From Microbacterium sp. (GTDB lineage Bacteria > Actinomycetota > Actinomycetes > Actinomycetales > Microbacteriaceae): 64,000 nucleotides of DNA. The position numbers were made by a program, and so were the translations under genes. The DNA is taken from NCBI RefSeq assembly GCF_047602155.1, contig NZ_JASGHZ010000001.1, positions 1,204,961 through 1,268,960 of the forward strand, read 5' to 3'. Shown one piece after another: positions 43,995 to 59,173 of the stretch; the first letter of the stretch is position 1, and the number at the start of each line of letters is the position of its first letter. The notes below the pieces were generated by a model. It worked only from the letters and a program-made list of their open reading frames with translations. It was not told where the DNA came from and made no database searches.

Positions 43995-44939
43995 TCACGG
44001 TCGCGCCGACCGGCTGTCGCGGGCGGGCACGGGCCAGACGCGGCCGTCGGGGCGGGCCTGCGGCGAGGGCGCCGGCTGCGGCCTGGGCGACGGTGTGGGC
44101 CCGGCGGCGGCATCGGATGCGGGCGGCGCCGCGACGCGGGCCAGCGCCTCGGCCGAGCGCACGATGACGGTCTGGGTCAGCGACTGCGCGAAGGCCGCCC
44201 AGTCGGTCGTCGGGGCGGCCGCAGCATCCGGATCGCCCCGCGTCGGCACGGGCGGCGCGGAGCCCTCGGCGCGCGCGCGGCGCCACGCCTCGGCCTCGGC
44301 CGCGTCGAACGCGCGGCCGAGACGCGCGACGCTGTCGCGGTAGGCCGCGAACTGCGCCGTCGTCAGTCGCACGCGGGCGGATGCCGGGCGCAGCTGCCAC
44401 GTCGTGCGCTGCTCGGCGAGGAACGTCGCCGTCGCCGGAACGCGGGCATCGGTCATCGCCGGGAACGCGATGAGCCGGGCCGGGTCGGTCTCGTACGCCA
44501 TCCAGCGGGCCGTCACGGCGTCGTGGCCGGACATCAGGCGGGCCAGCGGCAGGGCGGCCGGATCGGCGGCGCCGGCGGGCAGGGCGGCCCGCGCGGCGGA
44601 GACCCGGGCGCGGTGTGCGCGGACGGTGGCGCTCGCGGCCCGCGTCTCGCGCTGGGCGGTGTCGAGGGCGTGTCTCGCTCCGGCGACGTCGGCCGGGGTG
44701 GCGCGGTGCGCGGCGCGCTCGGCCTGGAGCCGGACGAGCTCGGTGCGTGCGACGCGCACGGCGGCGCGGGCGCTCGCCGCGTCACGGCGGGCGGCTTTGA
44801 GCTCCTGCCGTGCGGCTTCGAGCTCGACGCGGCGCAGGCGCTCGGCGCGTTCGTGGCGCAGGCCGAGCCAGCCGAGGGTGCCCGTGCCGATCACGATCGG
44901 CCCGATCCACCAGAACTCGACTGCCCATGCCAGGTCCAC
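43995..44939 (-). CDS. Hypothetical membrane-anchored protein, paralog 2
   Basis: Track ORF of 314 aa. It has an N-terminal TM helix (FWWIGPIVIGTGTLGWLG), a coiled-coil segment and the core HDAVTARWMAYETDPARLIAFPAMTDARVPATATFL...LRPASA. Confidence 0.55.
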   Translation of the reverse strand: MDLAWAVEFWWIGPIVIGTGTLGWLGLRHERAERLRRVELEAARQELKAARRDAASARAAVRVARTELVRLQAERAAHRATPADVAGARHALDTAQRETRAASATVRAHRARVSAARAALPAGAADPAALPLARLMSGHDAVTARWMAYETDPARLIAFPAMTDARVPATATFLAEQRTTWQLRPASARVRLTTAQFAAYRDSVARLGRAFDAAEAEAWRRARAEGSAPPVPTRGDPDAAAAPTTDWAAFAQSLTQTVIVRSAEALARVAAPPASDAAAGPTPSPRPQPAPSPQARPDGRVWPVPARDSRSARP

Positions 44940-45002
44940 AGCGTCATGCTATCCAGCATGCCTGAGAGCCGCCGGGGTTTGTCTCCCGGCATCCGGCTTG
45001 CT

Positions 45003-45191
45003 GCGTTTCGTCTCGCGGCTGCGCCGCTCGCTCAACGTCCGGAGGAGGGGCGCCGTCCGGCGTGCCCCCGGAGTCCCCGCGCCGCAGCCCCCCGGTCGTT
45101 GAGCGAGGCCCGCAGGGCCGAGACGAAACGCCGCAACGGAACGCCAGCCCTCCGGTCGTTGAGCGAGGCCCGCAGGGCCGAGACGAAACGC
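45003..45191. repeat. One inverted plus two perfect direct 40-bp units of the ccggtcgttgagcg...gagacgaaacgc family
   Basis: The inverse unit lies at 45003-45042. Identical direct units ccggtcgttgagcgaggcccgcagggccgagacgaaacgc lie at 45092-45131 and 45152-45191. Confidence 0.85.
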
Positions 45192-45199
45192 AGCGACTG

Positions 45200-45334
45200 T
45201 CAGCCGAAGAGCAGCGCGAGCACGGTCGCACCGCCGCCGACGAGGATCAGCGCGATGATCGTCACCCACGCGACGATGCGGGTACGGCGCGTGCGCGCGG
45301 CATTCATGCCCTCGTACTCGTCCGGGTCGCTCAT
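45200..45334 (-). CDS. Possible 44-aa single-TM protein
   Basis: This is the tail of track ORF 45200..46063: [44 protein letters not shown]. The ATG overlaps the purL stop (ATGA). There is no homology evidence. Confidence 0.4.
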
Positions 45335-47646
45335 GAGGTCAACCCTACGGGCTCGGCGACGGTGTCCCCGAAAACGGCCGGCAGCGTCGCCTGCGACAGG
45401 GCGCGCAACTCGGCGACCGGGATCGTGAAGACGTCCTGCACTTCGAGCGTGGGCTCGGTGTCGGTGACGCCGATGCGGAGCACCGGGTATCCGCGGCCTT
45501 CGCACAGTCCACGGAACTTGACGTCCTCTTCGCGCGGCACCGAGACGATGACGCGGCCGGTCGACTCGCTGAACAGGGCGGTGGCGGCATCGACGCCGTC
45601 GCGCTCCATGATCTCGCGCAGCCACACGCGGGCGCCGACGCCGAACCGCTCCGTCGCCTCGGCGAGGGCCTGGCCGAGCCCGCCGGCCGAGAGGTCGTGG
45701 GCGGACGAGACGAGCTCCTGCTGGGATGCCGCGTGGATGAGCTCGGCGAGCCGCTTCTCCTGCGCCAGGTCGACCGCCGGCGGCCGCCCGCCGAGGTGGC
45801 CGTGCACGGTGCCGGCCCACGCCGAGCCGCTGAGCTCGGTCGCGGTGACACCGAGGAGGTAGATGTTCTCCCCGGCATCCTGCCACCCGCTCGGAATGCG
45901 GCGGGCGACGTCGTCGATGATGCCGAGCACGCCCACGACCGGGGTCGGGAAGATCGGGACGTCGCCGGTCTGGTTGTAGAAGCTGACGTTGCCGCCGGTG
46001 ACCGGCACGCCGAGCTCGAGGCACGCCTCGGCGAGGCCGTCGACCGCCTGGCCGAACTGCCACATGACCTCGGGGTTCTCCGGGCTGCCGAAGTTGAGGC
46101 AGTCGGTGACGGCGGTCGGCACGGCGCCGGTGACGGCGACGTTGCGGTAGGCCTCGGCGAGGGCGAGCTGTGCGCCGGCGTAGGGGTCAAGCTGGCAGAA
46201 GCGGCCGTTGCAGTCGGTGGCGATCGCAAAGCCCAGGCCCGATTCCTCGTCGACGCGGATCATGCCGGCATCGTCGGGGAACGACAGGGCCGTGTTGCCC
46301 AAGACGAAGTAGTCGTACTGGTTGGTGACCCACGACGTGTCGGCGAGGTTCGGGCTCGTCAGCAGCTGCAGGAACTGGTCACGGAGGTCGGCCGGGTCGC
46401 TGCTGCGGGGGAGGGCGGATGCCGAGTCGTCGCGGAGGGCGTCGATCCAGGTCGGGTAGGCGACCGGCCGCTCGTAGACCGGGCCGTCGACGGCGACGGT
46501 CGACGGGTCGACGTCGACGATCTGCTCGCCGTGCCAGAAGATCTGCAGGCGGCCGTCGCCGGTGACCTCGCCGAGGACGCTGGTCTCGACATCCCACTTG
46601 CCGGTGACTTCCAGGAAGGCATCCAGCTTGTCGGGCGCGACGATGGCCATCATCCGCTCCTGCGACTCGCTCATGAGGATCTCCTCGGGCGTGAGCGTGG
46701 GGTCGCGCAGGAGCACGTTTTCGAGGTCGACGCGCATGCCGCTGTCGCCGTTGGCGGCGAGCTCGCTCGTCGCGCAGGAGATGCCGGCGGCGCCGAGGTC
46801 CTGGATGGCTTCGACGAGGTCGCTCTTGTAGAGCTCGAGGCAGCACTCGATGAGCACCTTCTCGGCGAACGGGTCGCCGACCTGCACGGCGGGGCGCTTG
46901 GTCGGTCCGCCGTCGGCGAACGTGTCGGAGGCGAGGATGGATGCCCCGCCGATGCCGTCGCCGCCCGTGCGCGCGCCGAACAGCACGACCTTGTTGCCGG
47001 CGCCGGAGGCGTTGGCGAGCTTGAGGTCTTCGTGGCGCAGCACGCCGACCGCGAGCGCGTTGACGAGGGGGTTGCCCTGGTAGACGGCGTCGAACACCGT
47101 CTCGCCGCCGATGTTGGGCAGGCCCAGGCAGTTGCCGTAGAAGCTGATGCCCGACACCACGCCGTGCACGACGCGCGCCGTGTCGGGGTTGTCGATCGCG
47201 CCGAAGCGCAGCTGGTCCATGACGGCGACCGGGCGCGCGCCCATCGAGATGATGTCGCGCACGATGCCGCCGACGCCGGTCGCGGCGCCCTGGAACGGCT
47301 CGATGTAGCTCGGGTGGTTGTGCGACTCGACCTTGAAGGTCACCGCCCAGCCCTCGCCGACATCGACGACGCCGGCGTTCTGGCCCATGCCGACCATGAG
47401 GCGCTTCTTCATCTCGTCGTTCGTCTTGGTGCCGAACTTGCGCAGGTAGATCTTCGACGACTTGTAGGAGCAATGCTCGCTCCACATGACGGAGTACATC
47501 GCCAGCTCGCCGCTGGTCGGCCGGCGGCCGAGGATCGTCTTGATCTGCTCGTACTCGTCGGGCTTGAGGCCCAGCGCCGCGTACGGCTGATCCTTGGTCG
47601 GGGTGGCGATGGCGTTCGCGACGGTGTCGGCGACGGGAGTGGTCAC
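45331..47646 (-). CDS. purL: Phosphoribosylformylglycinamidine synthase subunit PurL
   Basis: Track ORF of 771 aa: ...[26 protein letters not shown]...[26 protein letters not shown]. Confidence 0.95.
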
Positions 47647-47826
47647 GCGGCTGAGCTCCTGGAATTGGGTGCCGGGGATGGGGATCAGTCTATCGGCGGG
47701 GTGGGGTTGCTGTGGCGGGGGTTGGTTGCCGGCATCCCGGGTAAGAAGCGCCGGTCAAACCGCACTGCTGACAACGGATGCGGCTCGTCGTGCGTTCGTG
47801 GCGGCGGGGAGCGGCAGGATGGTGCC

Positions 47827-50727
47827 GTGACCCAACACCTGGCTTCCGGTGAGTTCAGCCGACGCGCCCGATCCGTCTGGGCAAAGACGCGCACCGGACC
47901 CGGACCCGATTTTGCATTGCAAGGCTGGCTGCCACTGGTCCAGCATCTGGCTGACACCGCAGCGGTGGCCGCGCTGTTATGGGAGGAGTGGGTTCCCGAA
48001 TCGCTGAAATCGATGCTCACGGATGCCGTCGGCACAAGGAGCGCCGCACGCGACCTCGTCGTTTGGCTCGCAGGGACACATGATGTCGGGAAAGCGTCGC
48101 CCGCATTCGCAGTGCAGGTGCCGCTCCTTGCCGATGTCATGCGAGACGAAGATCTCGAGATCGATCCACGGATCAAGGATGGCGACGAACGCAGGCAGGT
48201 CCGCCACGAGTTGGTGAGCTACCTGGCCATCCGTGACTGGCTTCAGTTGGTCCATGGATTCTCCAAGCTGGCAGCTGGTCGTCTCGCTAGCGTTGCAGCG
48301 GCGCATCACGGACAGCCGCCCTCGCGGCAACTGGTGTCCGAGGCAGAACCCCGACCGCACCTTGTCGGATCGGGTTCCTGGATCGACGTTCGAAATGAAC
48401 TGCTCGCAGCAGCCGACCGGGATCACGCATCTGTGGGGTCAGGTGAGCAGTGGAGAGCCGCCGAGTTCACGCAGCCTGTGCTCGTCATGCTCAGCGCGAT
48501 TGTCATCGTGTCCGATTGGATAGCGAGCAGTGATCTGTTTGATGCCGCCCCTTTGGGGGAGCCGCCGCGGGACACCACGGAGGACAGAGTCGCGCGTGCA
48601 TGGGCCGACCTCGACTTCCCACGCGCATGGGCACCGAGAAGCGATCAGACAGACGTCACCGCGATGCTGACGGCGCGGTTCGACCTTCCCGCGGGTGCTG
48701 CCCCTCGACCCGCGCAGGAAGCTTTCGTACGACAGGCGATGCAGGTTGAACGACCCGAGTTGATGATCCTCGAAGCCGAGATGGGGTCGGGTAAGACGGA
48801 GGCCGCACTCCTGGCCGCGGAGATCCTCGCCGGCCGCTTCGGCTTGAGTGGCGTGTTCGTCGGGCTCCCGACCCAGGCGACCACTGACGGGATGTTCTCG
48901 CGAGTCTTGCAGTGGGCTGACCGGCTCGATCTCGATACCCCGGCCAGCCTGTTCCTGGCTCGGGGGAAGTCGATGCTCAATCCCGAGTTCGCGCAAAAGT
49001 CTCGTGAGGCCCACTTCCGATCGATTGGCGATGACTACGCGGCCCGCCGCGAATCCGATGAATCGCTCGTCGTGGCTCACCGATGGTTCAGTGACCCTCG
49101 GAGGGGACCGCTGTCCAACTTTGTCGTGGGCACGGTCGACCAGGCGCTGTTCGCCGGGCTGCGGAGCAAATACCTGATGCTGCGACATCTCGCTCTCGCG
49201 AGCAAGGTCGTCATCATCGACGAGGTGCACGCGTACGACGCTTATATGCAGGAGTATCTGACGCGCGTGATCGAGTGGCTTGGCGCGTATCGAGTGCCTG
49301 TGATCCTGCTCTCGGCCACTCTGGCATCGTCACAGCGGCGGGCGTTTGTGGAGGCATACGATCGCGGTCGCGAGGCGCTCGAACCTGCGCCGCCGCTGGA
49401 CCCCTCGATGTCGGGCGCGGAACGTGCTGAGCGGCGTGCCGTGAGCGCGCAGGCGAAGGAAGCTCGATACCGGAGGCTGGACGGTGATTTCTGGTACCCG
49501 GCGATCACCGTCTCGCAGTGGAGAAGACCGCCTGCCCTGACCTTGCCGGGCGGGGCCAGCGATACGCGGAGGCTTCATATTGATCGCATCCCGGATGACC
49601 ATATTGTGCTCATCGATCTGCTCCGCTCCGCTCTTCGTGATGGGGGGAACGTTGCTGTCATCCGCAACACGGTCAGCCGAGCACAAGAGACGGCTGCACT
49701 GTTGCGCGACGCCTTCGGGGGAGACCTCCCGGTGACGCTCGCACACTCTCGCTTCCTCGGCCTCGACCGGGCACGCAAGGATCGCGAGCTCTTGTCGGCA
49801 TATGGCCCGAAGGGGGATCGGCCGAAGCGAAGCATCGTCGTCGCTACGCAGGTGATCGAGCAATCGTTGGATATCGACTTCGATCTGATGGTCACTGACA
49901 CGGCACCCATCGATCTGCTTCTGCAGCGCAGTGGTCGGCTCCATCGCCATCTGCGCGCCGGACGGCCCTTGCCGTTGCGCGAGCCTCGGCTCGTGTTGAC
50001 GGGAACGAATTGGGACGCCGAGCCGCCGCAATTCGTTCGCGGATCGACGCGGGTCTACTCCGAAGCAATCCTTCTGCGCACCACGGCTGCACTGCACGGA
50101 CGAGATGTGTTGTCGGTTCCGGATGACATCGCCTACCTCGTGGAGACGGTCTACAGCCACGACTTGTCGTTCATCCCAACGGGGTGGCGCGATGCGGTCG
50201 ACGATGCGACGAGGAAGCACGAGCGGGAACAGCAACGGCTTCGCGACAAGGCGCACAGCTTTCGTCTGCAGGGTGTCGCTGAGGGATCGTCGACGCTGCT
50301 CGGATGGATCAGCGGTCCCGACGTGGATCCAGATCTCACGCCGCCGGGACGGGCGACGGTACGTGATGGGGATGAGACTCTCGAAGTCATCGTCCTTCAG
50401 CGCAGGATTGACGGGGGGCTCGCGACGCCGGCGTGGCTCGCAGGCGGACCCCGCGACATCCCGGTGAATGAGGCTCCTCGTGGCGCATTGACGCGCACCA
50501 TCCTGGGGTGCACGCTTCGCCTGCCAGCGGGAATGTGCCACGGCAACGCGATCGACCGGCATATCGCAACACTGGAACGAGGTTTCGAGCTGCCCGAGTG
50601 GCACGCGAGTCCTGCTCTCAGGGGGGAACTCGTACTCGTGGTAGACGGCGACGGCAGGGCGCGCCTCAATGAGTTCGATCTTCGCTACACGCCCGACGAC
50701 GGTCTGACATTCGCCCGGGCCGGTTGA
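47827..50727 (+). CDS. cas3: Type I-E CRISPR-associated helicase/nuclease Cas3 (HD plus DEAH helicase)
   Basis: This is the C-terminal 966 codons of track ORF 45697..50727. The GTG at 47827 is the first plausible start after the purL antisense region. The HD region reads LPLVQHLADTAAVAALLWEEW...LAGTHDVGKASPAF. Walker A is EAEMGSGKTEAAL and the DEVH box is VIIDEVHAYD. Confidence 0.9.
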   Translation: MTQHLASGEFSRRARSVWAKTRTGPGPDFALQGWLPLVQHLADTAAVAALLWEEWVPESLKSMLTDAVGTRSAARDLVVWLAGTHDVGKASPAFAVQVPLLADVMRDEDLEIDPRIKDGDERRQVRHELVSYLAIRDWLQLVHGFSKLAAGRLASVAAAHHGQPPSRQLVSEAEPRPHLVGSGSWIDVRNELLAAADRDHASVGSGEQWRAAEFTQPVLVMLSAIVIVSDWIASSDLFDAAPLGEPPRDTTEDRVARAWADLDFPRAWAPRSDQTDVTAMLTARFDLPAGAAPRPAQEAFVRQAMQVERPELMILEAEMGSGKTEAALLAAEILAGRFGLSGVFVGLPTQATTDGMFSRVLQWADRLDLDTPASLFLARGKSMLNPEFAQKSREAHFRSIGDDYAARRESDESLVVAHRWFSDPRRGPLSNFVVGTVDQALFAGLRSKYLMLRHLALASKVVIIDEVHAYDAYMQEYLTRVIEWLGAYRVPVILLSATLASSQRRAFVEAYDRGREALEPAPPLDPSMSGAERAERRAVSAQAKEARYRRLDGDFWYPAITVSQWRRPPALTLPGGASDTRRLHIDRIPDDHIVLIDLLRSALRDGGNVAVIRNTVSRAQETAALLRDAFGGDLPVTLAHSRFLGLDRARKDRELLSAYGPKGDRPKRSIVVATQVIEQSLDIDFDLMVTDTAPIDLLLQRSGRLHRHLRAGRPLPLREPRLVLTGTNWDAEPPQFVRGSTRVYSEAILLRTTAALHGRDVLSVPDDIAYLVETVYSHDLSFIPTGWRDAVDDATRKHEREQQRLRDKAHSFRLQGVAEGSSTLLGWISGPDVDPDLTPPGRATVRDGDETLEVIVLQRRIDGGLATPAWLAGGPRDIPVNEAPRGALTRTILGCTLRLPAGMCHGNAIDRHIATLERGFELPEWHASPALRGELVLVVDGDGRARLNEFDLRYTPDDGLTFARAG

Positions 50728-50972
50728 TCGGCGCCGAACTTTCGGTAGGCGTTCTGCTTGGAGGTCCGCAGTGCGACGCCGATCGCCGCCCAGGAGTCTC
50801 CCGCGGCACGTGCTGCCGCAACGGCGTCGCGCAACCTCTGATCGGCCTCAGCGAGGGCTCGTCGAGCGGCGGCGATCTCCCGCAGATGCGCGGCGTCTCT
50901 CATCGACGACGGGTCGATGCCCCCGAGGAAGTCTTCGATGCCGTGCTCTGACGCGACTTTGACGGTGCCCAT
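50685..50972 (-). CDS. Small protein with C-terminal HTH-like segment, putative antitoxin/regulator
   Basis: Track ORF of 95 aa. The sequence ...AAARAAGDSWAAIGVALRTSKQNAYRKFG resembles the HTH tails of actinobacterial antitoxins. It lies 14 bp downstream of the 88-aa gene, and its 3' end overlaps the cas3 3' end by 43 bp. Confidence 0.4.
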   Translation of the reverse strand: MGTVKVASEHGIEDFLGGIDPSSMRDAAHLREIAAARRALAEADQRLRDAVAAARAAGDSWAAIGVALRTSKQNAYRKFGADQPARANVRPSSGV

Positions 50973-50986
50973 TCAGGATCCTTCTC

Positions 50987-51253
50987 TTACAACAGCCCTC
51001 GTCGACCTGGTCGGAGGATGTCGGCGTGGATGATCCGTTGCGGTTCATCGACCGGGACGAGGACGATCTCAAGGAGCGCGCCGGCTCGACTCGGTCCGAT
51101 CACCAGCATTCTCAACTCCCCGTCGTATTCCTGCTCGACGTATCGGACCGCATAGTCGATCGCGTGGAACATGTCGTCGTCGGCGATCCCGTGCTTTCGC
51201 GCGCTATCTGCGACCTCAAACGTCATCATATCGAGTACGACCCCGTTCGTCAA
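50987..51253 (-). CDS. Small protein, possible BrnT/DUF497-like toxin
   Basis: Track ORF of 88 aa. The pattern ARKHGI...(30 aa)...[24 protein letters not shown] resembles the KHG(V/I)...(I/V)R(I/V)ISAR layout of DUF497 toxins. This comes from memory, not a search. Confidence 0.35.
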
Positions 51254-51304
51254 TGAAAGGTTTACGCTGGACTCGGCGCGTATCCTGGCAGTCGGTTGGA
51301 TTTC

Positions 51305-51391
51305 GTCGCCCTGCGAGTTCCGGGGATGATCCCGCTGAATTGTTCGAGAGCAAAACCTTCGAGTGTTCCCCGCGCTGGCGGGGCTGTTCCG
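51305..51391 (+). CRISPR. Degenerate two-repeat mini-CRISPR (psi-repeat 1, 29-nt psi-spacer, psi-repeat 2), CreR/CreA-like
   Basis: Psi-R1 (51305-51333) ends in CGGGGATGATCCC, identical to the last 13 nt of the sense-strand repeat. Psi-R2 (51363-51391, GTGTTCCCCGCGCTGGCGGGGCTGTTCCG) keeps the CCCCGC/GCGGGG stem. The psi-spacer is 51334-51362. Confidence 0.6.
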
Positions 51392-51464
51392 ATACCGGAG
51401 GGGTCCGTCTCATTTTATGAATGCTGAATTGTTGGAGAGTAATAATTGAGAGGATTTTTCTTGC

Positions 51465-51493
51465 TTGACGTATCGATGATGCGTCTGTAGCGT
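51465..51493 (+). promoter_or_regulatory. Putative sigma-70-type promoter of the cas8e operon
   Basis: TTGACG (51465-51470), a 17-bp spacer, then TAGCGT (51488-51493). It lies 75 bp upstream of the cas8e ATG in the only AT-rich stretch of the region. This is by eye only. Confidence 0.3.
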
Positions 51494-51568
51494 GATGCTG
51501 TCGGGTCAAGAGTGACATCGACCTCGGACATCGGCGACGCCGCCGACCACCTGCGGGGAGTGGGGAAC

Positions 51569-53206
51569 ATGGGAGCAGTGCATCCGCAGTTCAGCGTTCT
51601 CGACGACGCATGGATCGCAGTTCGCCTCGTTGACGGATCGGCAGCCGAGGTCTCTTTGCGTGACGCTTTTCACCGGGCCGACGAGATTGCCGAGATCACT
51701 GGTGATCTCCCCACCCAGGCATTCGCGATCCTGCGACTGATGCTGGCGATCCTCTATCGCACGCTGCGTGGTGACAAACTCACCATCGATGTGTGGGCAT
51801 TCTGGCGTGAGAACGGGCTGCCCAACGGGGATATCGATGACTACTTCGACCTCTACGCTGACCGCTTCGAGCTGTTCCACCCTGAACGTCCGTTCTTCCA
51901 GGTCGCAGACCTCGCAACCGCATCGGGTGACCACAAGGATGTGTCGCCGCTCATCCTGGACTTGCCCAGCAACAACCGGCTATTCACGAACCGCGCAGGG
52001 TCGGGAGCCTCATCACTGTCGTTCGCAGAGGCGACACGCTGGCTGGTCGATGCGCAGGCCTGGGATCCGAGTGGTATCAAGAGCGGTGCTCTCGGTGACC
52101 CGCGAGTGAAAGGTGGCAAGGGCTACCCACTCGGATTGGCGTGGGCGGGTCTTCTCGGCGGCGTGTATGTGCAGGGGCAGACCCTGCGAGACACACTGCT
52201 GCTGAACCTTGTCGCAACGGACGATGGTCTCGATGTCGACGCCGAGTGGGACGTCCCGCCGTGGGAGGAAGAGCAAGCAGATGACGCCGCCGAACGTGAA
52301 GGCATCGTTCCTCGCGGCCCGGTGCGGCTCTACACCTGGCAGGCGCGCCGCATCCGGCTCTTCCCATCCGGCAGCCGCGTGACCGGATGCCTCGTCACCA
52401 ACGGCGACAGACTCACTCCGCAGAATCAGCAGACCCACGAGCCGATGTCTGCCTGGCGTTTCAGCGAGCCGCAGACCAAGGCGGCGAAGCAGACGACCTA
52501 TATGCCGCGCGAGCATCAGCAGGGGCGTGCGATGTGGCGCGGCATCGGTGCACTGCTTCCTGAACTCGCCGTGCCTGTCCCCAAGCGTGACATTCCGGCG
52601 AGTCTGCCACCGGGCATCGTCGGATGGCTGCAACGCGTCGAAGATGAGACGGATCTACTCCCCTCACGAGACCAGTTCCGGCTCCGGGCGATCGGTGTGG
52701 TCTATGGCAGCAACAATTCCGTCGTGGACGAAGTGATCGATGACGAGGTACTGATCCCCGTGGCCCTGCTCCGCGATCGCAATCGGCCTCTCGCTGCTCA
52801 AGCGCAAGAAGCCGTTCGGCTGGCGGATGAAGGTGTTCTCGCCCTGCGTCACCTTGCCGAGAACCTCGACCGCGCCGCCGGGGGCACAGGAGAAGGCGCA
52901 CGGGTGCGCGCCGGCGAGGTCGCCTATGCGGCCTTCGATGCACCATATCGGTGTTGGCTGGCCTCCCTCACAGACGCGAGTGACCCCGTCGAAGTCGTCT
53001 CGGAGTGGAAGCGAACTGCATACGGCATCTTGCGGGAACTGGGGACCGAGCTCATCGAGACGTCCGGACCGGCGGCTTGGGTGGGTCGCGACGTGTCGCG
53101 CGGAGGGCGCACAGATCTCATCACAACGCCGCGCGCCGAGGGCTGGTTCCTGAGCTCGCTTGCAAAAACCTTCGGCGCTGCTGCCAGAAAGGAAGAAGCC
53201 GCATGA
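51569..53206 (+). CDS. cas8e: Type I-E Cascade large subunit Cas8e (Cse1/CasA)
   Basis: Track ORF 51512..53206. I prefer the ATG at 51569, which has GGGGAG upstream, because MGAVHPQFSVLDDAWIAVRLVDGSAAEVSLRDAFHRADEI matches the usual Cse1 N-terminus (F.LLDEPWIPV). The GTG at 51512 remains possible. Confidence 0.85.
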   Translation: MGAVHPQFSVLDDAWIAVRLVDGSAAEVSLRDAFHRADEIAEITGDLPTQAFAILRLMLAILYRTLRGDKLTIDVWAFWRENGLPNGDIDDYFDLYADRFELFHPERPFFQVADLATASGDHKDVSPLILDLPSNNRLFTNRAGSGASSLSFAEATRWLVDAQAWDPSGIKSGALGDPRVKGGKGYPLGLAWAGLLGGVYVQGQTLRDTLLLNLVATDDGLDVDAEWDVPPWEEEQADDAAEREGIVPRGPVRLYTWQARRIRLFPSGSRVTGCLVTNGDRLTPQNQQTHEPMSAWRFSEPQTKAAKQTTYMPREHQQGRAMWRGIGALLPELAVPVPKRDIPASLPPGIVGWLQRVEDETDLLPSRDQFRLRAIGVVYGSNNSVVDEVIDDEVLIPVALLRDRNRPLAAQAQEAVRLADEGVLALRHLAENLDRAAGGTGEGARVRAGEVAYAAFDAPYRCWLASLTDASDPVEVVSEWKRTAYGILRELGTELIETSGPAAWVGRDVSRGGRTDLITTPRAEGWFLSSLAKTFGAAARKEEAA

Positions 53207-53850
53207 CCACTTCTGTCCGGTCCTCTCTCGGGGAACGCTTGGTCGATCACGTCTCGGCCAAGGCCGCCTCCTTGCAGGCGCGCTATCGGAACAACGATTC
53301 CACGGCTGTGGCAGAGCTTGCGATCCTGCGTCGGGGCGTCTCTCAGCGTGTGGGCGAGGATGCCGCGCTCGCCGGATCGGTACTCGGCGGCCTCTACGAG
53401 AACCCCGCTGCTCTTCCGGACGAGGTGCAGCCCGCGGAGCGCGCCGCATATGCCGCACTGACGCTGTTCGCCGTGCACCAGCAGTCGCATCGCGGTGCGA
53501 GCATGCATCGCCCGGGATACTCGCTCGGGCGATCAGCACGCCTCCTGGGGCGACACTCAGGTGCTCAGGACGCCGTACGCCGACGCTTCACCGCTCTGGC
53601 CACAGCGACCACCTGGGACGAGACTATGCACCACGCTCGCGGACTTGTGCAGCAGCTGCGGGCATTCGGCATCCCACTCGACTACGGACGGTTCGCACGT
53701 GACCTTCTTGATCTGCAGTCGCAGGATCGGGCGGATCGTGTTCGTCTGGTCTGGGGACGCCACTTCTATCGTGTGCGCCACGCCGAAGACGATGCCGAGT
53801 CAGACGGCGGCACGGTCGCCGAAACCGACGACACCACAAACGACGCCTGA
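53203..53850 (+). CDS. cse2: Type I-E Cascade small subunit Cse2 (Cas11/CasB)
   Basis: The ATG at 53203 overlaps the cas8e stop (ATGA). These are the last 215 codons of track ORF 53005..53850. Position and size are typical of Cse2. Confidence 0.8.
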   Translation: MTTSVRSSLGERLVDHVSAKAASLQARYRNNDSTAVAELAILRRGVSQRVGEDAALAGSVLGGLYENPAALPDEVQPAERAAYAALTLFAVHQQSHRGASMHRPGYSLGRSARLLGRHSGAQDAVRRRFTALATATTWDETMHHARGLVQQLRAFGIPLDYGRFARDLLDLQSQDRADRVRLVWGRHFYRVRHAEDDAESDGGTVAETDDTTNDA

Positions 53851-53871
53851 ACGAACCCAAGGAGAACTCAC

Positions 53872-55011
53872 ATGACCCGCACCATCGTGGACGTCAACGT
53901 CCTGCAGACCGTTCCACCCAGCAACCTCAATCGCGATGACACCGGCAGCCCGAAGTCCGCTGTCTACGGCGGCGTGCGCCGGGCTCGAGTGTCCAGCCAG
54001 GCATGGAAGCGCGCCACACGCCTTGCCTTCAAAGATGTCTTGGATTCGTCCACGCTAGGCACTCGGACAAAGCGCGTCGTGGAGCTGCTCGGCGAACGGA
54101 TCGTCCAGCAAGACCCGGCCATCCCCGTGGAGCGGGCGCAAGAGTTGGCAGTCTTCGCGTTCTCAGCCGCGGGCATCAAGCTCTCGGCCCCCCGTCGCTC
54201 GACGGCGGAGAACCCGCAACCACACGAATCCGGGTACTTGCTGTTCTTGAGTTCGCTTCAGCTTGACCACCTCGCGCAGCTCTGCGCTCAAGCGCACGAT
54301 ACCGATGACCCGAAGGCGCACCTCAAGGGCGCAGACGTCAAGAACGCGCTCGACAGCTCGCATTCCGTGGACTTGTCGCTGTTCGGTCGCATGGTCGCCG
54401 ATGCCAGCGACCTGAACGTCGACGCTGCATGCCAGGTCGCACACGCGGTCAGTGTGCATCCGGTGGAGACGGAGTTCGACTACTTCACGGCTGTCGATGA
54501 TCATAAGGATGCGGACGCCGAAGAAGACGCCGGCGCCGGAATGATCGGCACCGTCGAGTTCAACGCTTCGACTCTCTACCGTTACGCGACGATCGATGTC
54601 GACCTGCTCGCACGCAATCTGGGCGATGCGGATGCGACTCGCTTGGCCGTCGAGGCCTTCGTGCGCGCCTTTGTGACCAGCATGCCGAGCGGCAAGCAGA
54701 ACACCTTCGCGAACCGCACCTTGCCGGATGCAGTGGTGATCAGCCTGCGTGACACTCAGCCGGTGAATCTCGTCGGTGCGTTCGAGGAGGCCGTGGTCGG
54801 GGAACATCGTCTGGCGCAGGCAGCAGAGAGGCTCGCCGACTATGCAGTCGGTATCGACCGCGCCTATGACACGACGCCGGTCGAGACATGGATCGTGCGT
54901 GGCAACGGCACCACGAAAGCGCTGGATGTATTCGGTCAACCGGTGTCGTTGGGCGCAGCGGTCTCCGGCGTCGGGGCGGCCGTCGCAGAACGACTGCAGT
55001 CGCAGGAGTGA
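53872..55011 (+). CDS. cas7: Type I-E Cascade backbone subunit Cas7e (Cse4/CasC)
   Basis: Track ORF of 379 aa: MTRTIVDVNVLQTVPPSNLNRDDTGSPKSAVYGGVRRARVSSQAWKRA is the canonical Cas7e N-terminus. Confidence 0.9.
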   Translation: MTRTIVDVNVLQTVPPSNLNRDDTGSPKSAVYGGVRRARVSSQAWKRATRLAFKDVLDSSTLGTRTKRVVELLGERIVQQDPAIPVERAQELAVFAFSAAGIKLSAPRRSTAENPQPHESGYLLFLSSLQLDHLAQLCAQAHDTDDPKAHLKGADVKNALDSSHSVDLSLFGRMVADASDLNVDAACQVAHAVSVHPVETEFDYFTAVDDHKDADAEEDAGAGMIGTVEFNASTLYRYATIDVDLLARNLGDADATRLAVEAFVRAFVTSMPSGKQNTFANRTLPDAVVISLRDTQPVNLVGAFEEAVVGEHRLAQAAERLADYAVGIDRAYDTTPVETWIVRGNGTTKALDVFGQPVSLGAAVSGVGAAVAERLQSQE

Positions 55012-55718
55012 CCGTGAGCACGCTGCTGATCGAACTCGCCGGACCGCAGCAGGCCTGGGGTTCGCGCAGCCGCTTCGCGACTCGCGCCACCGAGCTCGCT
55101 CCGACACGCAGTGGCGTGATCGGCCTGGTCGCGGCGGCTCTGGGGCTCGCTCGCACCGAGCCGCTGGACCGGTTCGACAAGCTGGAGTTCGGAGTGCGCA
55201 TCGATCAGCCCGGGCGAATCGAGCGAGACTTCCAGACTGCGCGGACCCTAGATGGCAAGACCTCGATGCCCCTGTCCCAGCGTTTCTATCTCGCTGACGC
55301 CGTGTTCCTTGCAGCGTTGGGGACTGAAGACCGCGCGATGCTGGAGAGCCTGCGGCAGGCGTTGACCCACCCTCGGTTTCCGCTGTATTTGGGGCGTCGA
55401 GCCTTTCCACCGGCGCGACCGCTCATGCCCGAGATCGTGGATCGTCCTTTGCGGGAGGCTCTCCGGGAAGCGGCGTGGCGGGCGTCGCCCTGGTACCAAC
55501 GCGTGCGAAGTGTCGAGCAGCCCGCCTTAGAGATCCTGGCCGACGCGCTACCCGGAGAGACGGGAGCCTTCACGCTGCGCGACGTGCCGCGCAGCTTCGA
55601 TCCGCGAAGGCGACTTCATGACCTACGAGGCGTCGCCGCTCTGTCGACTGCGGGCGACACCTCCACACACGTCTCACCGCATGACCCCATGCTGCTTGTC
55701 AGCGAAGAGGAAGTCTGA
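55008..55718 (+). CDS. cas5: Type I-E Cas5e (CasD)
   Basis: The GTG at 55008 overlaps the cas7 stop (an alternative GTG lies at 55014). It lies within track ORF 54888..55718 and reads STLLIELAGPQQAWGSRSRFATRATELAPTRSGVIGLVAAALG. Confidence 0.85.
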   Translation: MTVSTLLIELAGPQQAWGSRSRFATRATELAPTRSGVIGLVAAALGLARTEPLDRFDKLEFGVRIDQPGRIERDFQTARTLDGKTSMPLSQRFYLADAVFLAALGTEDRAMLESLRQALTHPRFPLYLGRRAFPPARPLMPEIVDRPLREALREAAWRASPWYQRVRSVEQPALEILADALPGETGAFTLRDVPRSFDPRRRLHDLRGVAALSTAGDTSTHVSPHDPMLLVSEEEV

Positions 55719-56401
55719 TGTACCTGTCCCGTATCCAGCTGAACCCCGCGCGCCGTGACGCTCAGCAGCTTCTTGCTTCGCCACACGCGCTGCATGCGGC
55801 TGTGCAGGCGGCCTTTCCCGACCCGGCTCCGCGGCCGGAGGGCCGGGTTCTTTGGCGCCTTGACGTTGCGCAACACGCGACCCACGTCTACATCGTGAGC
55901 CCGACCCGGCCGGACTCTACGCATATCGCTGAGCAGGCTGGGTGGCCTTCGCTTGACGACACCCAGTTGGTGCGACCGTATTCGCCGTTGCTGAGCCGCA
56001 TAGAGAAGGGCCAGCGTTACGCATTCCGGCTGACTGCCAATCCCACCCACACAACCCGTTCGGTCGAGGGCGAGCGCGGCAAGGTGTTTGGGCATGTGAC
56101 GGTGGCGCAACAAGAGCGATGGTTGCTCGACCGTCAAGAGCATGCGGGATTTCTCGTCGATATGCTTGCTGCACCCCACGCGGAGCGGAGTGAGGAGACT
56201 GAGGTAGCGCGCGCGCTCGTCATCAAGGATCGGCGTACCTTGTCGTTCTCCCGCCGTGAGACGCGGGTCACGCTGCGGATTGCCACCTACGAAGGCTCTT
56301 TGCAGGTCATCGACCGTGACGCCTTCGTCTCGGCACTCTGCCATGGCATCGGTCGGGCAAAAGGGTACGGCTGCGGGCTCATGACCATCGCCCCGGCGTG
56401 A
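55718..56401 (+). CDS. cas6e: Type I-E crRNA endoribonuclease Cas6e (Cse3/CasE)
   Basis: Track ORF of 227 aa: MYLSRIQLNPARRDAQQLLASPHALHAAV...GIGRAKGYGCGLMTIAP. Confidence 0.9.
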   Translation: MYLSRIQLNPARRDAQQLLASPHALHAAVQAAFPDPAPRPEGRVLWRLDVAQHATHVYIVSPTRPDSTHIAEQAGWPSLDDTQLVRPYSPLLSRIEKGQRYAFRLTANPTHTTRSVEGERGKVFGHVTVAQQERWLLDRQEHAGFLVDMLAAPHAERSEETEVARALVIKDRRTLSFSRRETRVTLRIATYEGSLQVIDRDAFVSALCHGIGRAKGYGCGLMTIAPA

Positions 56402-56414
56402 TAAGGCCGCCAAA

Positions 56415-57365
56415 ATGACGATTCCCGGTGCTCGCCCGCCCGATCTGCCGGATCTTGTCCGCGCTCAGGATCGAATGACGTTCATTTATCTCGAGAAGTG
56501 CCAGCTCCACCGTGACGCGAATGCGATTACGGCGACAGACGAGCGAGGGGTGATGCACATCCCCGCGGCAGCTCTCGGCGCCCTGCTACTTGGGCCCGGT
56601 ACCACCGTGACACAACAGGCGATGGTGCTCATGGCAGAGAGCGGATCGACCGTGGTCTGGGTGGGTGAGGAAGGTGTGCGCTATTACGCGCACGGGCGTT
56701 CTCTCGCACACAGCTCGCGTCTCTTGGAGGCGCAGGCGCAGCTGATGACAAATCAGAGCAGCCGTCTCCGTGTCGCTCGGGAGATGTACGCCATGCGATT
56801 CCCCGGCGAGGATACTTCTGGCCTGACGATGCAGCAGCTACGGGGTCGCGAGGGCGCACGCATCCGACGCGCGTACCGCGAGCATTCACGTCGCACGGGC
56901 GTCCCGTGGGCAGGGCGCGACTACGAGGTCGAGGATTTCGCAGCGAGCGACCCGGTCAATCAAGCGCTCTCTGCGGCGAACACGAGTCTCTACGGAGTCG
57001 TGCACTCGGTCATTGTCGCGTTGGGATGTTCGCCGGGCCTCGGGTTCGTACACACGGGCCACGTGCGGTCATTCGTCTACGACATCGCCGACCTATACAA
57101 GGCTGAACTGACTATTCCGTTGGCCTTCGATCTCGCCGCTGAGGCGCCGTTCGACATCGGGGCGGCCGCGCGCCGTGCCCTGCGTGATCGGTTCCATGGC
57201 GGAGCGTTGCGTGAGCGGTGTGTTCGGGACATTCGCCAGCTGCTCATCCCTGACGATTCGGAGCAAGATGCTGACATCGGCCTGGCTGAGAACGTCGTGT
57301 ACCTCTGGGACGGTTCGCGGCGGGCCGTCGCCGGCGGTACCAGCTATGACGAGATACCGTTCTGA
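56415..57365 (+). CDS. cas1: Type I-E integrase Cas1e
   Basis: Track ORF of 316 aa. Its position and the conserved segments (RMTFIYLEKCQLHRDANAI, GLGFVHTGHVRSFVYDIADLYK) support the call. Confidence 0.9.
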   Translation: MTIPGARPPDLPDLVRAQDRMTFIYLEKCQLHRDANAITATDERGVMHIPAAALGALLLGPGTTVTQQAMVLMAESGSTVVWVGEEGVRYYAHGRSLAHSSRLLEAQAQLMTNQSSRLRVAREMYAMRFPGEDTSGLTMQQLRGREGARIRRAYREHSRRTGVPWAGRDYEVEDFAASDPVNQALSAANTSLYGVVHSVIVALGCSPGLGFVHTGHVRSFVYDIADLYKAELTIPLAFDLAAEAPFDIGAAARRALRDRFHGGALRERCVRDIRQLLIPDDSEQDADIGLAENVVYLWDGSRRAVAGGTSYDEIPF

Positions 57366-57730
57366 TGGTGGTGATCGTGCTTTCGGCGTGTCCCCCCGGA
57401 TTGCGTGGGTATCTGACCCGTTGGCTGCTGGAGATATCCGCGGGAGTATTCGTGGGCGCCGTATCCAAGCGCGTGCGCGAACTCCTGTGGAAACGCATCG
57501 TAGAGATGGTGCGCACGGGTCGAGCAATCATGGTGTTTCCCGCTCGGAATGAACAACGCCTTGAGTTCCTTGTGCACGGCCACCACTGGGAACCCGTGGA
57601 TGTTGACGGGATCATGCTCATGCTGCGACCTGCAGCGGAACAGCGTGGTCGAGAGTCGGAGACAGCTGGGATGGCCGACACCAGTCGACGAACAGGATGG
57701 AGCAAGGCAGCGCGTCGCCGGAGTCGATGA
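57365..57730 (+). CDS. cas2: Type I-E Cas2e
   Basis: Track ORF of 121 aa: MVVIVLSACPPGLRGYLTRWLLEISAGVFVGAVSKRVRELLW. It overlaps the cas1 stop. Confidence 0.9.
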   Translation: MVVIVLSACPPGLRGYLTRWLLEISAGVFVGAVSKRVRELLWKRIVEMVRTGRAIMVFPARNEQRLEFLVHGHHWEPVDVDGIMLMLRPAAEQRGRESETAGMADTSRRTGWSKAARRRSR

Positions 57731-57769
57731 CCTCTGAACATTGGACGCGCAGGTTGGGAACTCATTGAT

Positions 57770-57977
57770 GGTTTATCCCCGGGACCGGGGACCACTCTGG
57801 CTCTCAGTCGCCGTGGATTCCGACGGTCGAGTCATCCCCGCGGCGCGGGGAGGAGATCGCGGGGATCGTGCTGATGTTCATCGCCGCAGGATCATCTCCG
57901 CGCAAGCAAGGAGAACCGGTCGGGACGCTTGGGGAGTGTCTTGCGGAACGGATCACCCCCGTGGTGGCGGGGAGCTC
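57770..57977 (-). CRISPR. Four decayed repeats (trailer-end remnant of the array)
   Basis: The four repeats are ggtttatccccgggaccggggaccac (57770), gagtcatccccgcggcgcggggaggag (57829), ggatcatctccgcgcaagcaaggagaac (57889) and ggatcacccccgtggtggcggggagctc (57950). Their spacings are 59, 60 and 61 bp. Confidence 0.75.
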
Positions 57978-58004
57978 ATCGGAGATTTCGCTCAATCGCG
58001 ACAC

Positions 58005-59130
58005 TAGTGTCGCGTGTCGTTAGTTCCTAAAGGGTTGGATGGTTGGGAGAATTGGCTATGGCGAATTCTCCGGCTCCTGCGCTGCGGCTGTTCGATGGCG
58101 ACGAGTCCATGCTGCGTGGCTGGCTCCGGTCGACAACGGTGCGTGCGGGTGATGCGAAGCGGGCGCGGATCGTGTTGCTGGCCTCGGAGGGAGTCGCGAA
58201 TACGCGGATCGCTGAGCTCACGGATGCGTCGGTCGTGACGGTGTTGAAGTGGCGGGCCCGGTACGAAGAGCTCGGGATCGCGGGTTTGGGCGACGCGGAT
58301 CGGTCCGGAAGACCACGTCATCTGGACCACGCGGACATCGTCGCTGCGACGTTGACCTCGCCGCCGAAGAAGTACGGGGTAACGCACTGGTCATCCCGGC
58401 TGCTGGCCAGGCATCTGAAAATCGGGAACGCAACGGTTGCCAGGGCGTGGCGAGAGTACGGGGTGCAGCCGTGGAAGTCGGAGACGTTCAAGTTCTCCAC
58501 CGATCCGGAACTGGTCGGCAAAGTCACGGACGTCGTCGGTCTGTACCTCGCACCGCCGGAGAACGCGATCGTGCTGTGCGTGGACGAGAAGAGCCAGATC
58601 CAGGCGCTGGATCGCACCGCGCCGATGCTGCCGATGCGCATCGGGGACGCTGAGAAGCGCACCCATGACTACAAACGGCACGGCACGACGACACTGTTCG
58701 CCGCGCTGGAGATCGCGACCGGGCACGTCACCGGAGCGGTCAAGCCGAAGCACCGCCGGCAGGAGTTCCTGGCGTTCCTGCGGCAAATCGACCGCGCCTA
58801 CCCCGACGTCGAACTGCACCTCGTGATGGACAACTACGCCACCCACAAGACCCCGGAAGTGAAGGCCTGGCTCGAGCAACGCCCCCGCTTCCACGTCCAT
58901 TTCACACCGACATCAGGATCCTGGCTGAATCTCGTCGAAGTCTGGTTCGGAATCATCGACAAGCAGGCCATCCGCCGCGGAATCTTCACCAGCGTGAACG
59001 ACCTCAACGCGAAGATCAGACAATTCATCACTGGCTGGAACGACCGGAAGCATCCTTTCGTCTGGACCAAGACCCCGGAACAGATCCTCGCGAAAGCCAA
59101 CCGTCAACCAACTTCAGAAACGCGACACTA
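58005..59130 (+). mobile_element. IS630-family insertion sequence with TA target duplication in a CTAG target
   Basis: The flanks read caC-TA-[gtgtcgcgtgtcg ... cgcgacac]-TA-G. The terminal inverted repeats are GTGTCGCGT (58007-) and ACGCGACAC (-59128). There is a single DDE transposase ORF. Confidence 0.85.
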
Positions 59131-59131
59131 G
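58058..59131 (+). CDS. IS630-family DDE transposase
   Basis: Track ORF 58043..59131. The ATG at 58058 is more likely than the TTG at 58043. It has an N-terminal HTH (ANTRIAELTDASVVTVLKWRARYEE) and a DDE region (VLCVDEKSQIQAL...HLVMDNYATHKT...GSWLNLVEVWF). The stop TAG is completed by the target-site TA plus G. Confidence 0.85.
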   Translation: MANSPAPALRLFDGDESMLRGWLRSTTVRAGDAKRARIVLLASEGVANTRIAELTDASVVTVLKWRARYEELGIAGLGDADRSGRPRHLDHADIVAATLTSPPKKYGVTHWSSRLLARHLKIGNATVARAWREYGVQPWKSETFKFSTDPELVGKVTDVVGLYLAPPENAIVLCVDEKSQIQALDRTAPMLPMRIGDAEKRTHDYKRHGTTTLFAALEIATGHVTGAVKPKHRRQEFLAFLRQIDRAYPDVELHLVMDNYATHKTPEVKAWLEQRPRFHVHFTPTSGSWLNLVEVWFGIIDKQAIRRGIFTSVNDLNAKIRQFITGWNDRKHPFVWTKTPEQILAKANRQPTSETRH

Positions 59132-59173
59132 ATGAGTGAGTCCGTTTGGCTTGTTTGGCTTTGATTTCGCGTG

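Follow-up and report, generated by a model that had tools for sequence, protein, structure and literature searches.

The DNA analysed here is a 64-kb stretch of Microbacterium sp. sequence with a G+C content of 70% (hereafter the window), within which lies a type I-E CRISPR–Cas locus. This assignment follows from the gene set (cas3, cas8e, cse2, cas7, cas5, cas6e, cas1 and cas2) together with 29-nt repeats of the form CCCCGC...GCGGGG and 32-nt spacers (Table 1). The Cas8e product is 100% identical to an NCBI protein from Microbacterium sp. (P0001); ATG 51569 is an alternative start for the gene. A 1676-aa cas3 reading frame in the list of open frames was rejected as an artefact of high-G+C DNA, the Cas3 domains beginning only at residue 728. 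Two small minus-strand genes, one encoding a weakly BrnT-like protein and the other its partner, are separated from cas8e by an intergenic region of 258 nt, and an NCBIfam search of both proteins (88 and 95 aa) returned nothing meaningful. The main array is written in the window as its reverse complement; it is transcribed on the minus strand, the repeat reading GTGCTCCCCGCGTCCGCGGGGATGATCC plus one variable base in the transcribed sense, and lies 8 kb from a mini-array on the plus (cas) strand.

Table 1. Features of the type I-E locus, in window coordinates
Feature	Position	Strand	Remarks
cas3	47827-50727 (about)	+	likely GTG start 47827; Cas3_HD, Cas3-like_C_2 and Cas3_C domains
Small gene, 95-aa partner of BrnT-like protein	50685-50972	-	between cas3 and the mini-array
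Small gene, 88-aa weakly BrnT-like protein	50987-51253	-	Pfam BrnT_toxin E = 1.1e-3, below the curated cut-off
Candidate -10 hexamer TATCCT (TANNNT type)	51281-51286	+	24 nt upstream of psiR1
psiR1, decayed repeat	51305-51333	+	GTCGCCCTGCGAGTTCCGGGGATGATCCC
psiS, pseudo-spacer	51334-51362	+	29 nt, GCTGAATTGTTCGAGAGCAAAACCTTCGA; guide segment, positions 1-17
psiR2, decayed repeat	51363-51391	+	CCCCGC/GCGGGG hairpin 51368-51383 intact; 3' tail degenerate
Target PAM, AAT	51420-51422	+	directly 5' of the target
Target (protospacer-like) site	51423-51442	+	18/20 match to psiS; nominal 29-nt site ends at 51451
A+T-rich stretch	51440-51464	+	from the paired segment to the -35 box
Putative cas8e operon promoter, TTGACG-17-TAGCGT	51465-51493	+	TTGACG 51465-51470; TAGCGT 51488-51493
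cas8e (cse1)	51512-53206	+	GTG 51512, 564 aa, per NCBI annotation; Pfam CRISPR_Cse1 E = 6.5e-111
cse2	53203-53850	+	by position, ATG at 53203 and Cse2 matches of neighbours in related loci
cas7	53872-55011	+	Pfam match (CT1975)
cas5	54888-55718	+	Pfam match
cas6e	55718-56401	+	Pfam match
cas1, cas2	3' of cas6e	+	assigned from position and size
Three degenerate terminal repeats	3' of cas2
IS630-type transposase gene	58043-59131
Main CRISPR array	59234-64000	-	78 repeats, spacers mostly 32 nt, 61-nt period; extends past the window end

A degenerate two-repeat array upstream of cas8e

Autorepression of cas genes by CreR has been shown experimentally for types I-B, I-E (at the Salmonella casA promoter) and V-A (Liu et al., bioRxiv 10.1101/2023.03.10.532045, later in Cell Host Microbe). 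The mini-array shares its general form, being a two-repeat degenerate CRISPR within the cas locus, outside the main array and on the effector strand. An earlier sequence-only reading had named two decayed repeats (psiR1 and psiR2), the pseudo-spacer between them (psiS) and a target site, all of which were present with the coordinates and sequences that it gave. The repeats have decayed in the complementary manner of CreR elements, the handle being preserved in psiR1 and the hairpin, or 3' handle, in psiR2. The 3' 13 nt of psiR1 (CGGGGATGATCCC) are those of the locus repeat consensus in its transcribed sense and include the predicted 8-nt 5' handle at 51326-51333 (ATGATCCC), while the first 16 nt are largely decayed, giving 12 ungapped mismatches to the consensus in all. 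The remaining stem is poor (CCCUG/CGGGG, 5 bp including a G-U pair, with a 7-nt loop) and folds with -9.0 kcal/mol (z = -0.5), compared with -14.3 kcal/mol for the canonical repeat. Given this weak Cas6e stem, formation of the 5' end of a pseudo-crRNA is uncertain.

psiR2, by contrast with psiR1, folds with -13 kcal/mol (z = -2.1) and is predicted to supply the 3' handle and the hairpin bound by Cas6e. The exact stem claimed for it in the sequence-only reading is intact, whereas the identity of 21/29 given there proved to be 22/29 (seven mismatches). When the whole element (51295-51400) was folded, psiR1 paired with psiR2, with a stability no better than that of shuffled sequences (z = -1.3). 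psiS, with 29 nt, is 3 nt shorter than the native 32 nt, a shortfall that is no multiple of the 6-nt Cas7 step. The hexamer TATCCT upstream of psiR1 may be the promoter element of a transcript belonging to the mini-array itself. A terminator scan detected none 3' of psiR2, and an E-value-threshold search of 44000-64000 against Rfam left the mini-array without a match, the only hits being two sub-threshold RAGATH-31 matches in the main array.

Target site, PAM and predicted cas8e promoter

psiS recurs at 51423, an offset of 89 nt. The two copies agree at all 15 positions of the segments 1-5, 7-11 and 13-17 (15/15), differ at 12 and 18, match again at 19 and 20, and lose their identity after 20. 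Shuffling 51392-51600 20,000 times gave no score above 13/15, and no second psiS site scoring above 11/15 was found on either strand of the window. The copy lies beside the predicted cas8e promoter, so that psiS, like CreR guides, has partial, PAM-proximal complementarity to a site adjoining that promoter. In this genome the target is upstream of the -35 box without overlapping it, the TTGACG box beginning 13 nt past the end of the nominal 29-nt site; from such a position the strength of repression cannot be predicted. The GTG start of cas8e follows 19 nt after the -10 box, and a short conserved leader motif was observed between the promoter and cas8e. The region is markedly poor in G+C (39% for 51400-51470 against 70% for the window), and the A+T-rich stretch that reaches the -35 box, with similar stretches seen by eye in several orthologous loci, may act as an UP element or aid DNA melting. 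A generic sigma-70 scan did not flag the predicted cas8e promoter, because TAGCGT matches TATAAT at only three of six positions; the sole promoter that it flagged was the minus-strand TTGACG-17-TATGAT of the small-gene pair (51253-51225).

The native PAM of the system was obtained from the main array, spacers of which match Microbacterium phages. Five of these spacers aligned to a total of four phage loci. For the three that follow a repeat ending in C, AAC lies 5' of the protospacer, and for the two that follow a repeat ending in G, AAG and CAG do so (one each). Because the last base of the repeat agrees with these flanking trinucleotides, the 29th repeat base is PAM-derived, as it is in E. 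coli too. Across the main array this base is C for 63, G for 12 and T for 2 of 77 spacers. Taken together, the phage protospacers and the 29th repeat base define the native PAM as AA[C>G>T]. They also answer a question raised by the sequence-only reading, in that AAT, as seen beside the target, is a PAM variant that occurs naturally and is usable, albeit the least frequent one (2/77 spacers). The target is thus flanked, as in CreR, by a PAM usable by the cognate system. The order AAC > AAG > AAT should also be useful for repurposing the endogenous system or for studying escape by Microbacterium phages.

Related loci and alternative explanations

Relatives of the locus were collected with an alignment of Cas8e as query, which gave 80 genome loci and 80 metagenome loci; a genome scan with a single Cas8e protein as query found no relative, so that the alignment-based query was needed. 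Exact-protein look-ups added seven further close relatives. An unrestricted detector of matching pairs was too noisy in G+C-rich coding DNA, and a hairpin with a 7-9-nt upstream handle was then required. Twelve unique loci share the layout (the window, L001-L004, L082, which is the same as L083, L085, L165, L167, L168, L170 and L172). The 11 related loci are actinobacterial and of type I-E, with Cas8e proteins 62-75% identical to that of the window, and those that could be identified are Microbacterium. The order of elements is TANNNT, psiR1, pseudo-spacer, psiR2, a target copy flanked by AAN and a TTGnnn promoter. In all 12 the TANNNT hexamer lies 10-35 nt 5' of psiR1, the handle [A/G/T]TGA[T/C]CC[N] is kept while the 5' part of psiR1 decays (its stem being almost gone in L170), and psiR2 retains its hairpin with a degenerate tail. 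The target starts 74-94 nt downstream of the start of the pseudo-spacer and copies its first 17-20 nt, with AAC as PAM in seven loci, AAT in four and AAG in one, and in all but one of the 12 (11/12) a TTGnnn-(16-19)-TAnnnT element begins 27-42 nt past the first base of the target. Weaker and more distant examples were seen in L037, L060, L112 and L142.

The pseudo-spacers of these orthologous loci (20-35 nt) differ in sequence, yet each matches its own target. This is the co-variation, with drifting flanks, that the sequence-only reading had proposed to look for: the mean pseudo-spacer/target score was 13.5/15 within a locus and 5.5/15 between loci (maximum 10), and none of 100,000 permutations reached the observed sum. 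Evolutionary coupling of pseudo-spacer and target, expected of CreR, is therefore present across the 12 loci. In L168, in-register pairing extends over only about 9 nt.

The mismatches between pseudo-spacer and target are far from evenly spread. From position 1 to position 24 the numbers of mismatched loci (n = 12) were 0 0 0 0 0 9 0 1 3 2 6 11 1 1 2 1 1 8 7 6 10 10 9 9. The zeros at positions 1-5 are partly a matter of construction, a match there having been required for detection of a locus, and these positions were left out of the test. Positions 6, 12 and 18 were mismatched in 28/36 cases, a frequency near the 75% expected without constraint, compared with 18/120 at 7-11 and 13-17 (Fisher p = 4e-12); the sequence-only reading had pointed to every sixth position from the mismatches at 12 and 18 in the window alone. 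Identity is lost after about position 18, and from position 21 onward 9-10 of the 12 loci are mismatched. In type I Cascade every sixth base of the guide is flipped out and unpaired, which accounts for the sixfold period. As judged from these sequences, the mismatch pattern is a footprint of Cascade pairing and reflects selection acting through pairing of the Cascade type; if this is true, neutral change at 6, 12 and 18 would directly record, on an evolutionary scale, which bases are flipped.

These comparative data bear on a view of the element as a non-functional relic, either the remnant of an old array or a local duplication, in which decaying repeats and a duplicated segment of 17-20 nt would have no regulatory role. 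CRISPR-cas loci often carry repeat-like debris (Shmakov et al., PMC10120712, which is bioRxiv 10.1101/2023.03.03.530964, later in Nucleic Acids Res), psiR1 is heavily decayed in this genome, the ATGA on the 5' side of the target is reminiscent of the handle, and the element is missing from some close relatives (L081, L169 and L171, whose intergenic regions are short or rearranged). Copies evolving neutrally would each diverge on their own, however, whereas here the match is about 90% within a locus and about 37% between loci (n = 12). Neither neutral decay nor gene conversion predicts mismatches concentrated at 6, 12 and 18, and the PAM, the handle boundary and the spacing to the promoter are all conserved, which makes a relic very unlikely. 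A larger simple duplication, which the sequence-only reading had named as a finding that would undo its proposal, does not apply, since identity runs from exactly the handle/PAM boundary to near position 18 in 12/12 loci. The mini-array is also absent from loci in which cas3 abuts cas8e (L006-L010, L014 and L086-L089), which is consistent with the element being linked to cas8e having a promoter of its own. Still less credible is that both 17-nt copies are operators for a protein transcription factor, with the hairpins incidental or serving as terminators. Direct repeats near promoters are often bound by regulators, the region is A+T-rich and the I-E cas promoters of E. coli are under H-NS, LeuO and CRP (Shmakov et al.), but a protein operator would be conserved across orthologous loci, where the sequence in fact differs completely and only the match within each locus is kept. 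Nor would such operators show a 6-nt mismatch period, or have one copy joined at a fixed point to an 8-nt CRISPR handle and the other preceded by an AAN PAM.

The small-gene pair raises the further question of an addiction module resembling CreTA, in which the pseudo-crRNA would repress an RNA toxin or the BrnT-like toxin, loss of Cascade would kill the cell and autoregulation of cas would be secondary. In Haloarcula hispanica (type I-B), where CreTA combines the antitoxin RNA CreA with the toxin RNA CreT, the degenerate mini-CRISPR RNA CreA and Cascade repress a promoter through seed-only pairing, without cleavage, and the same CreA also autorepresses the cas genes (Liu et al., 10.1101/2023.03.10.532045); haloarchaeal I-B CreA elements act as addiction modules of this kind. 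Toxin–antitoxin genes are enriched beside I-E mini-arrays (Shmakov et al., PMC10120712), the weak BrnT-like pair is the immediate upstream neighbour here and in five relatives, and the leader motif before cas8e might be read in the same direction. The element does resemble that of H. hispanica in its predicted degenerate mini-CRISPR RNA and in the proposed repression guided by the seed alone, and differs from it in subtype, in domain of life and in having no creT-like gene under the target promoter. That promoter instead leads directly into cas8e, and the short distance from its -10 box to the GTG leaves no room for even a small toxin gene. A pair similar to the BrnT-like one accompanies the mini-array and its target in only 6/12 loci (the window, L002, L003, L167, L170 and L172); it is absent from L001, L004, L082, L085 and L168, and its place in L165 is taken by one small ORF. 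The promoter of the pair has no psiS match either, as the window-wide search for a second site makes plain, and we regard a CreTA-like module as highly improbable. The same observations lend no support to the suggestion, made in the sequence-only reading, that Cascade guards the locus along with its toxin-like neighbours. The BrnT-like pair is cargo that a locus may carry or lack, outside the circuit.

Probable Cascade autorepression and its known counterparts

We consider it highly probable, on the strength of these sequence comparisons, that the mini-array is a functional autoregulator of the CreR type, its guide RNA steering Cascade to the promoter of its own genes. The comparative data thus favour the Cascade-autoregulation reading put forward earlier, and the function itself is what we infer from them. 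Among the grounds for doubt are the weak psiR1 stem and the off-register length of the 29-nt psiS in this genome. In outline, transcription of psiR1-psiS-psiR2 would follow the cas strand, probably starting at a TANNNT promoter of the mini-array, and Cas6e would cut the transcript at the hairpin bases to yield an RNA of about 58 nt, composed of the 8-nt handle AUGAUCCC, the 29-nt psiS and a 21-nt psiR2 hairpin. The products of cse2, cas7, cas5 and cas6e would bind and process this CreR-like RNA, and the pseudo-crRNA would assemble into Cascade. psiS is complementary to the bottom strand of the target, where Cascade is expected to read the AAT at 51420-51422 and to pair over about 17 nt (1-5, 7-11 and 13-17). 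Recruitment of Cas3 by I-E Cascade depends on an R-loop that is complete and locked. Because complementarity stops near position 18, the R-loop could not lock, and Cas3 would not be licensed.

Held in this incomplete state, Cascade would act as a roadblock at the cas8e promoter, covering about -77 to -50, the A+T-rich stretch included, and would lower transcription of cas8e-cse2-cas7-cas5-cas6e and probably also of cas1-cas2. The outcome would be negative feedback, with repression rising as free Cascade rises. Relief could come from the abundant crRNAs of the 78-repeat array, competing for Cascade, or from anti-CRISPRs that inactivate it. We raise more tentatively the possibility that the regulator of this clade is insulated from self-cleavage by more than truncated complementarity, through short pseudo-spacers or, here, a rare PAM. 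In 8/12 loci the pseudo-spacer measures only 20-23 nt, having lost about 12 nt, or two Cas7 steps, relative to the native 32, which might imply a dedicated 'short Cascade' physically unable to complete an R-loop, an idea that we put forward with some scepticism. The window's locus would rely instead on a 29-nt pseudo-spacer and the rarest natural PAM, AAT, a conceivable if rather doubtful safeguard. Should such variants set different strengths of repression, the clade would offer a natural series in which to examine the tuning of autoregulation by Cascade stoichiometry and PAM quality.

The closest counterpart is the I-E CreR of Salmonella enterica, a degenerate mini-CRISPR that likewise lies between cas3 and casA/cas8e on the effector strand, with 5'-handle nucleotides in psiR1 and a 3' hairpin in psiR2. 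There a 15-nt match with an AAG PAM guides repression, the same complementary decay of psiR1 and psiR2 is described, and relief follows when crRNAs or anti-CRISPRs titrate Cascade (Liu et al., 10.1101/2023.03.10.532045). In both cases a PAM-proximal partial match lies near the effector promoter (15 consecutive nucleotides in Salmonella; 17 nt with one mismatch at a flipped position here), no RNA toxin is associated, and sensing of crRNA load and anti-CRISPRs is predicted. The target is about 140 bp upstream of the cas8e start in Salmonella and about 90 nt (GTG 51512, the annotated start) or about 145 nt (ATG 51569) upstream of it here. Unlike Salmonella, the host is a high-G+C actinobacterium, the PAM at the target is AAT rather than AAG (native AA[C>G>T]), the psiR1 stem is more decayed and transcription of the main array runs on the other strand; moreover, Salmonella CreR has been demonstrated by experiment, whereas the Microbacterium element is predicted from sequence.

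Among bacterial I-E loci, about 19% have a mini-array; it typically separates cas3 from cas8, its target lying in the promoter of cas8, and loci in which cas3 abuts cas8 'lack room' for them (Shmakov et al., PMC10120712). The present element agrees with these I-E mini-arrays in its two repeats between cas3 and cas8, its partial match to the cas8 promoter, its valid PAM and its decayed distal repeat, and differs from them in that the proximal repeat is also decayed, in its 5' half. Mismatches at every sixth position were noted there for I-F1 mini-arrays. That work is a survey; what the present analysis adds is the statistics of co-variation and sixfold periodicity within a single orthologous clade, and on both counts the comparative signal is unusually clean.

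The sequence-only reading knew of no such element in an actinobacterial I-E locus, a claim to novelty that does not hold in its broader sense: CreR has already been demonstrated in Salmonella I-E and predicted for many I-E loci, and Actinomycetota appear in collections derived from CreA/CreR, a later preprint placing them among the phyla with CRISPR-Cas loci targeted by viral Cracr RNAs (with CreA/CreR as queries). A phage-borne, Cracr-like mimic of the present element was considered and rejected. Comparison of 51290-51470 with 50,697 phage records by blastn gave weak chance matches to Salmonella jumbo phages only, and the pattern GATGATCCNGCTGAATTGTT in two IMG/VR contigs was a chance occurrence in A+T-rich or unrelated sequence lacking the repeat hairpin. 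As far as sequence features can tell, the element possesses all those by which CreR is recognized and represents a known mechanism, with no new principle. It would extend a mechanism shown experimentally in few systems to a high-G+C actinobacterial clade that targets known Microbacterium phages, and the region would best be annotated as a gene for a regulatory cr-like RNA with its operator rather than as a degenerate or questionable CRISPR. A more distant parallel is the tracr-L of type II-A, a natural non-canonical guide of partial complementarity with which Cas9 represses its own promoter (Workman et al. 2021, as cited by Liu et al.). There the effector is a single class 2 protein and the guide derives from the tracrRNA, with no mini-array.

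Pseudo-spacer length and a locus of different architecture

The pseudo-spacer of the mini-array, which was read as a CreR-like regulator of the cas8e promoter, is just 20–23 nt long in eight of the 12 orthologous mini-arrays (L001, L002, L082, L085, L165, L167, L170 and L172), compared with 32 nt for native spacers, and is about the same length as the target-pairing segment. Longer pseudo-spacers were the exceptions, measuring 29 nt in the window and 32–35 nt in L168, L003 and L004. The mini-array is absent from L171, a relative whose Cas8e is 68% identical. This locus carries a lone repeat-like sequence at about 1215–1245, in reversed orientation and ∼270 nt upstream of cas8e; HepT/MNT-type toxin–antitoxin genes adjoin it, and the intergenic architecture differs.

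A conserved motif at the start of cas8e

Downstream of the cas8e promoter and ahead of the conserved Cas8e N-terminus is a conserved motif, yC(C/G)GACATC, which codes for (S/T)-D-I. By eye, a GTG located 17–19 nt past the −10 box begins this segment in the window and in the orthologous loci L001–L003. In most loci the segment is in the cas8e frame, the window reading MTSTSDIGD..., whereas in L002, L004 and L167 a stop codon closes it. The segment may form a short leader ORF or extend the N-terminus, or may instead act as a DNA or RNA element.

Coordinates of features around the mini-array and main array
Feature	Position	Strand	Remarks
yC(C/G)GACATC motif region	window 51512–51568; L001 about 3400–3440; L002 3433–3490; L003 3417–3500; others too
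Two-gene cassette	50685–51253	−	88-aa weak BrnT-like protein and 95-aa partner; between cas3 and mini-array
IS630-family transposase gene	58043–59131		DDE_3 and HTH domains
Degenerate terminal repeats (three copies)	about 57827, 57888 and 57949 (span 57827–57977)	−	strand given as sense

Mobile elements beside the arrays

The divergent promoter region of the cassette next to the mini-array (TTGACG-17-TATGAT, 51253–51225) is well conserved. A similar pair is found in roughly half the related loci (L002, L003, L167, L170 and L172) and missing from the rest, a distribution that marks the pair as mobile cargo. Its position is consistent with the reported enrichment of toxin–antitoxin genes beside mini-arrays (Shmakov et al., PMC10120712). 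At the main array, the transposase gene separates the three degenerate terminal repeats from the remainder; an insertion sequence thus divides the trailer end.

PAM and phage targets of the main array

The variable 29th repeat base of the main array (window 59234–64000, − strand) is C in 63 cases, G in 12 and T in 2 (n=77). Spacers of this array match protospacers in the Microbacterium phages PrincePhergus, AxiPup, OscarSo and Isperia (L161–L164), so known cultured phages are targeted, and in these protospacers the last PAM base is the 29th repeat base. AAC, not AAG, is the main PAM of the Microbacterium I-E system in the window. The main array also gave a 145-nt match at 67% identity to Saccharomonospora phage PIS 136 (JX006077.1), reflecting a repeat-like sequence in the phage genome; this phage has been named as a mini-array carrier, its target not identified (Shmakov et al., PMC10120712).
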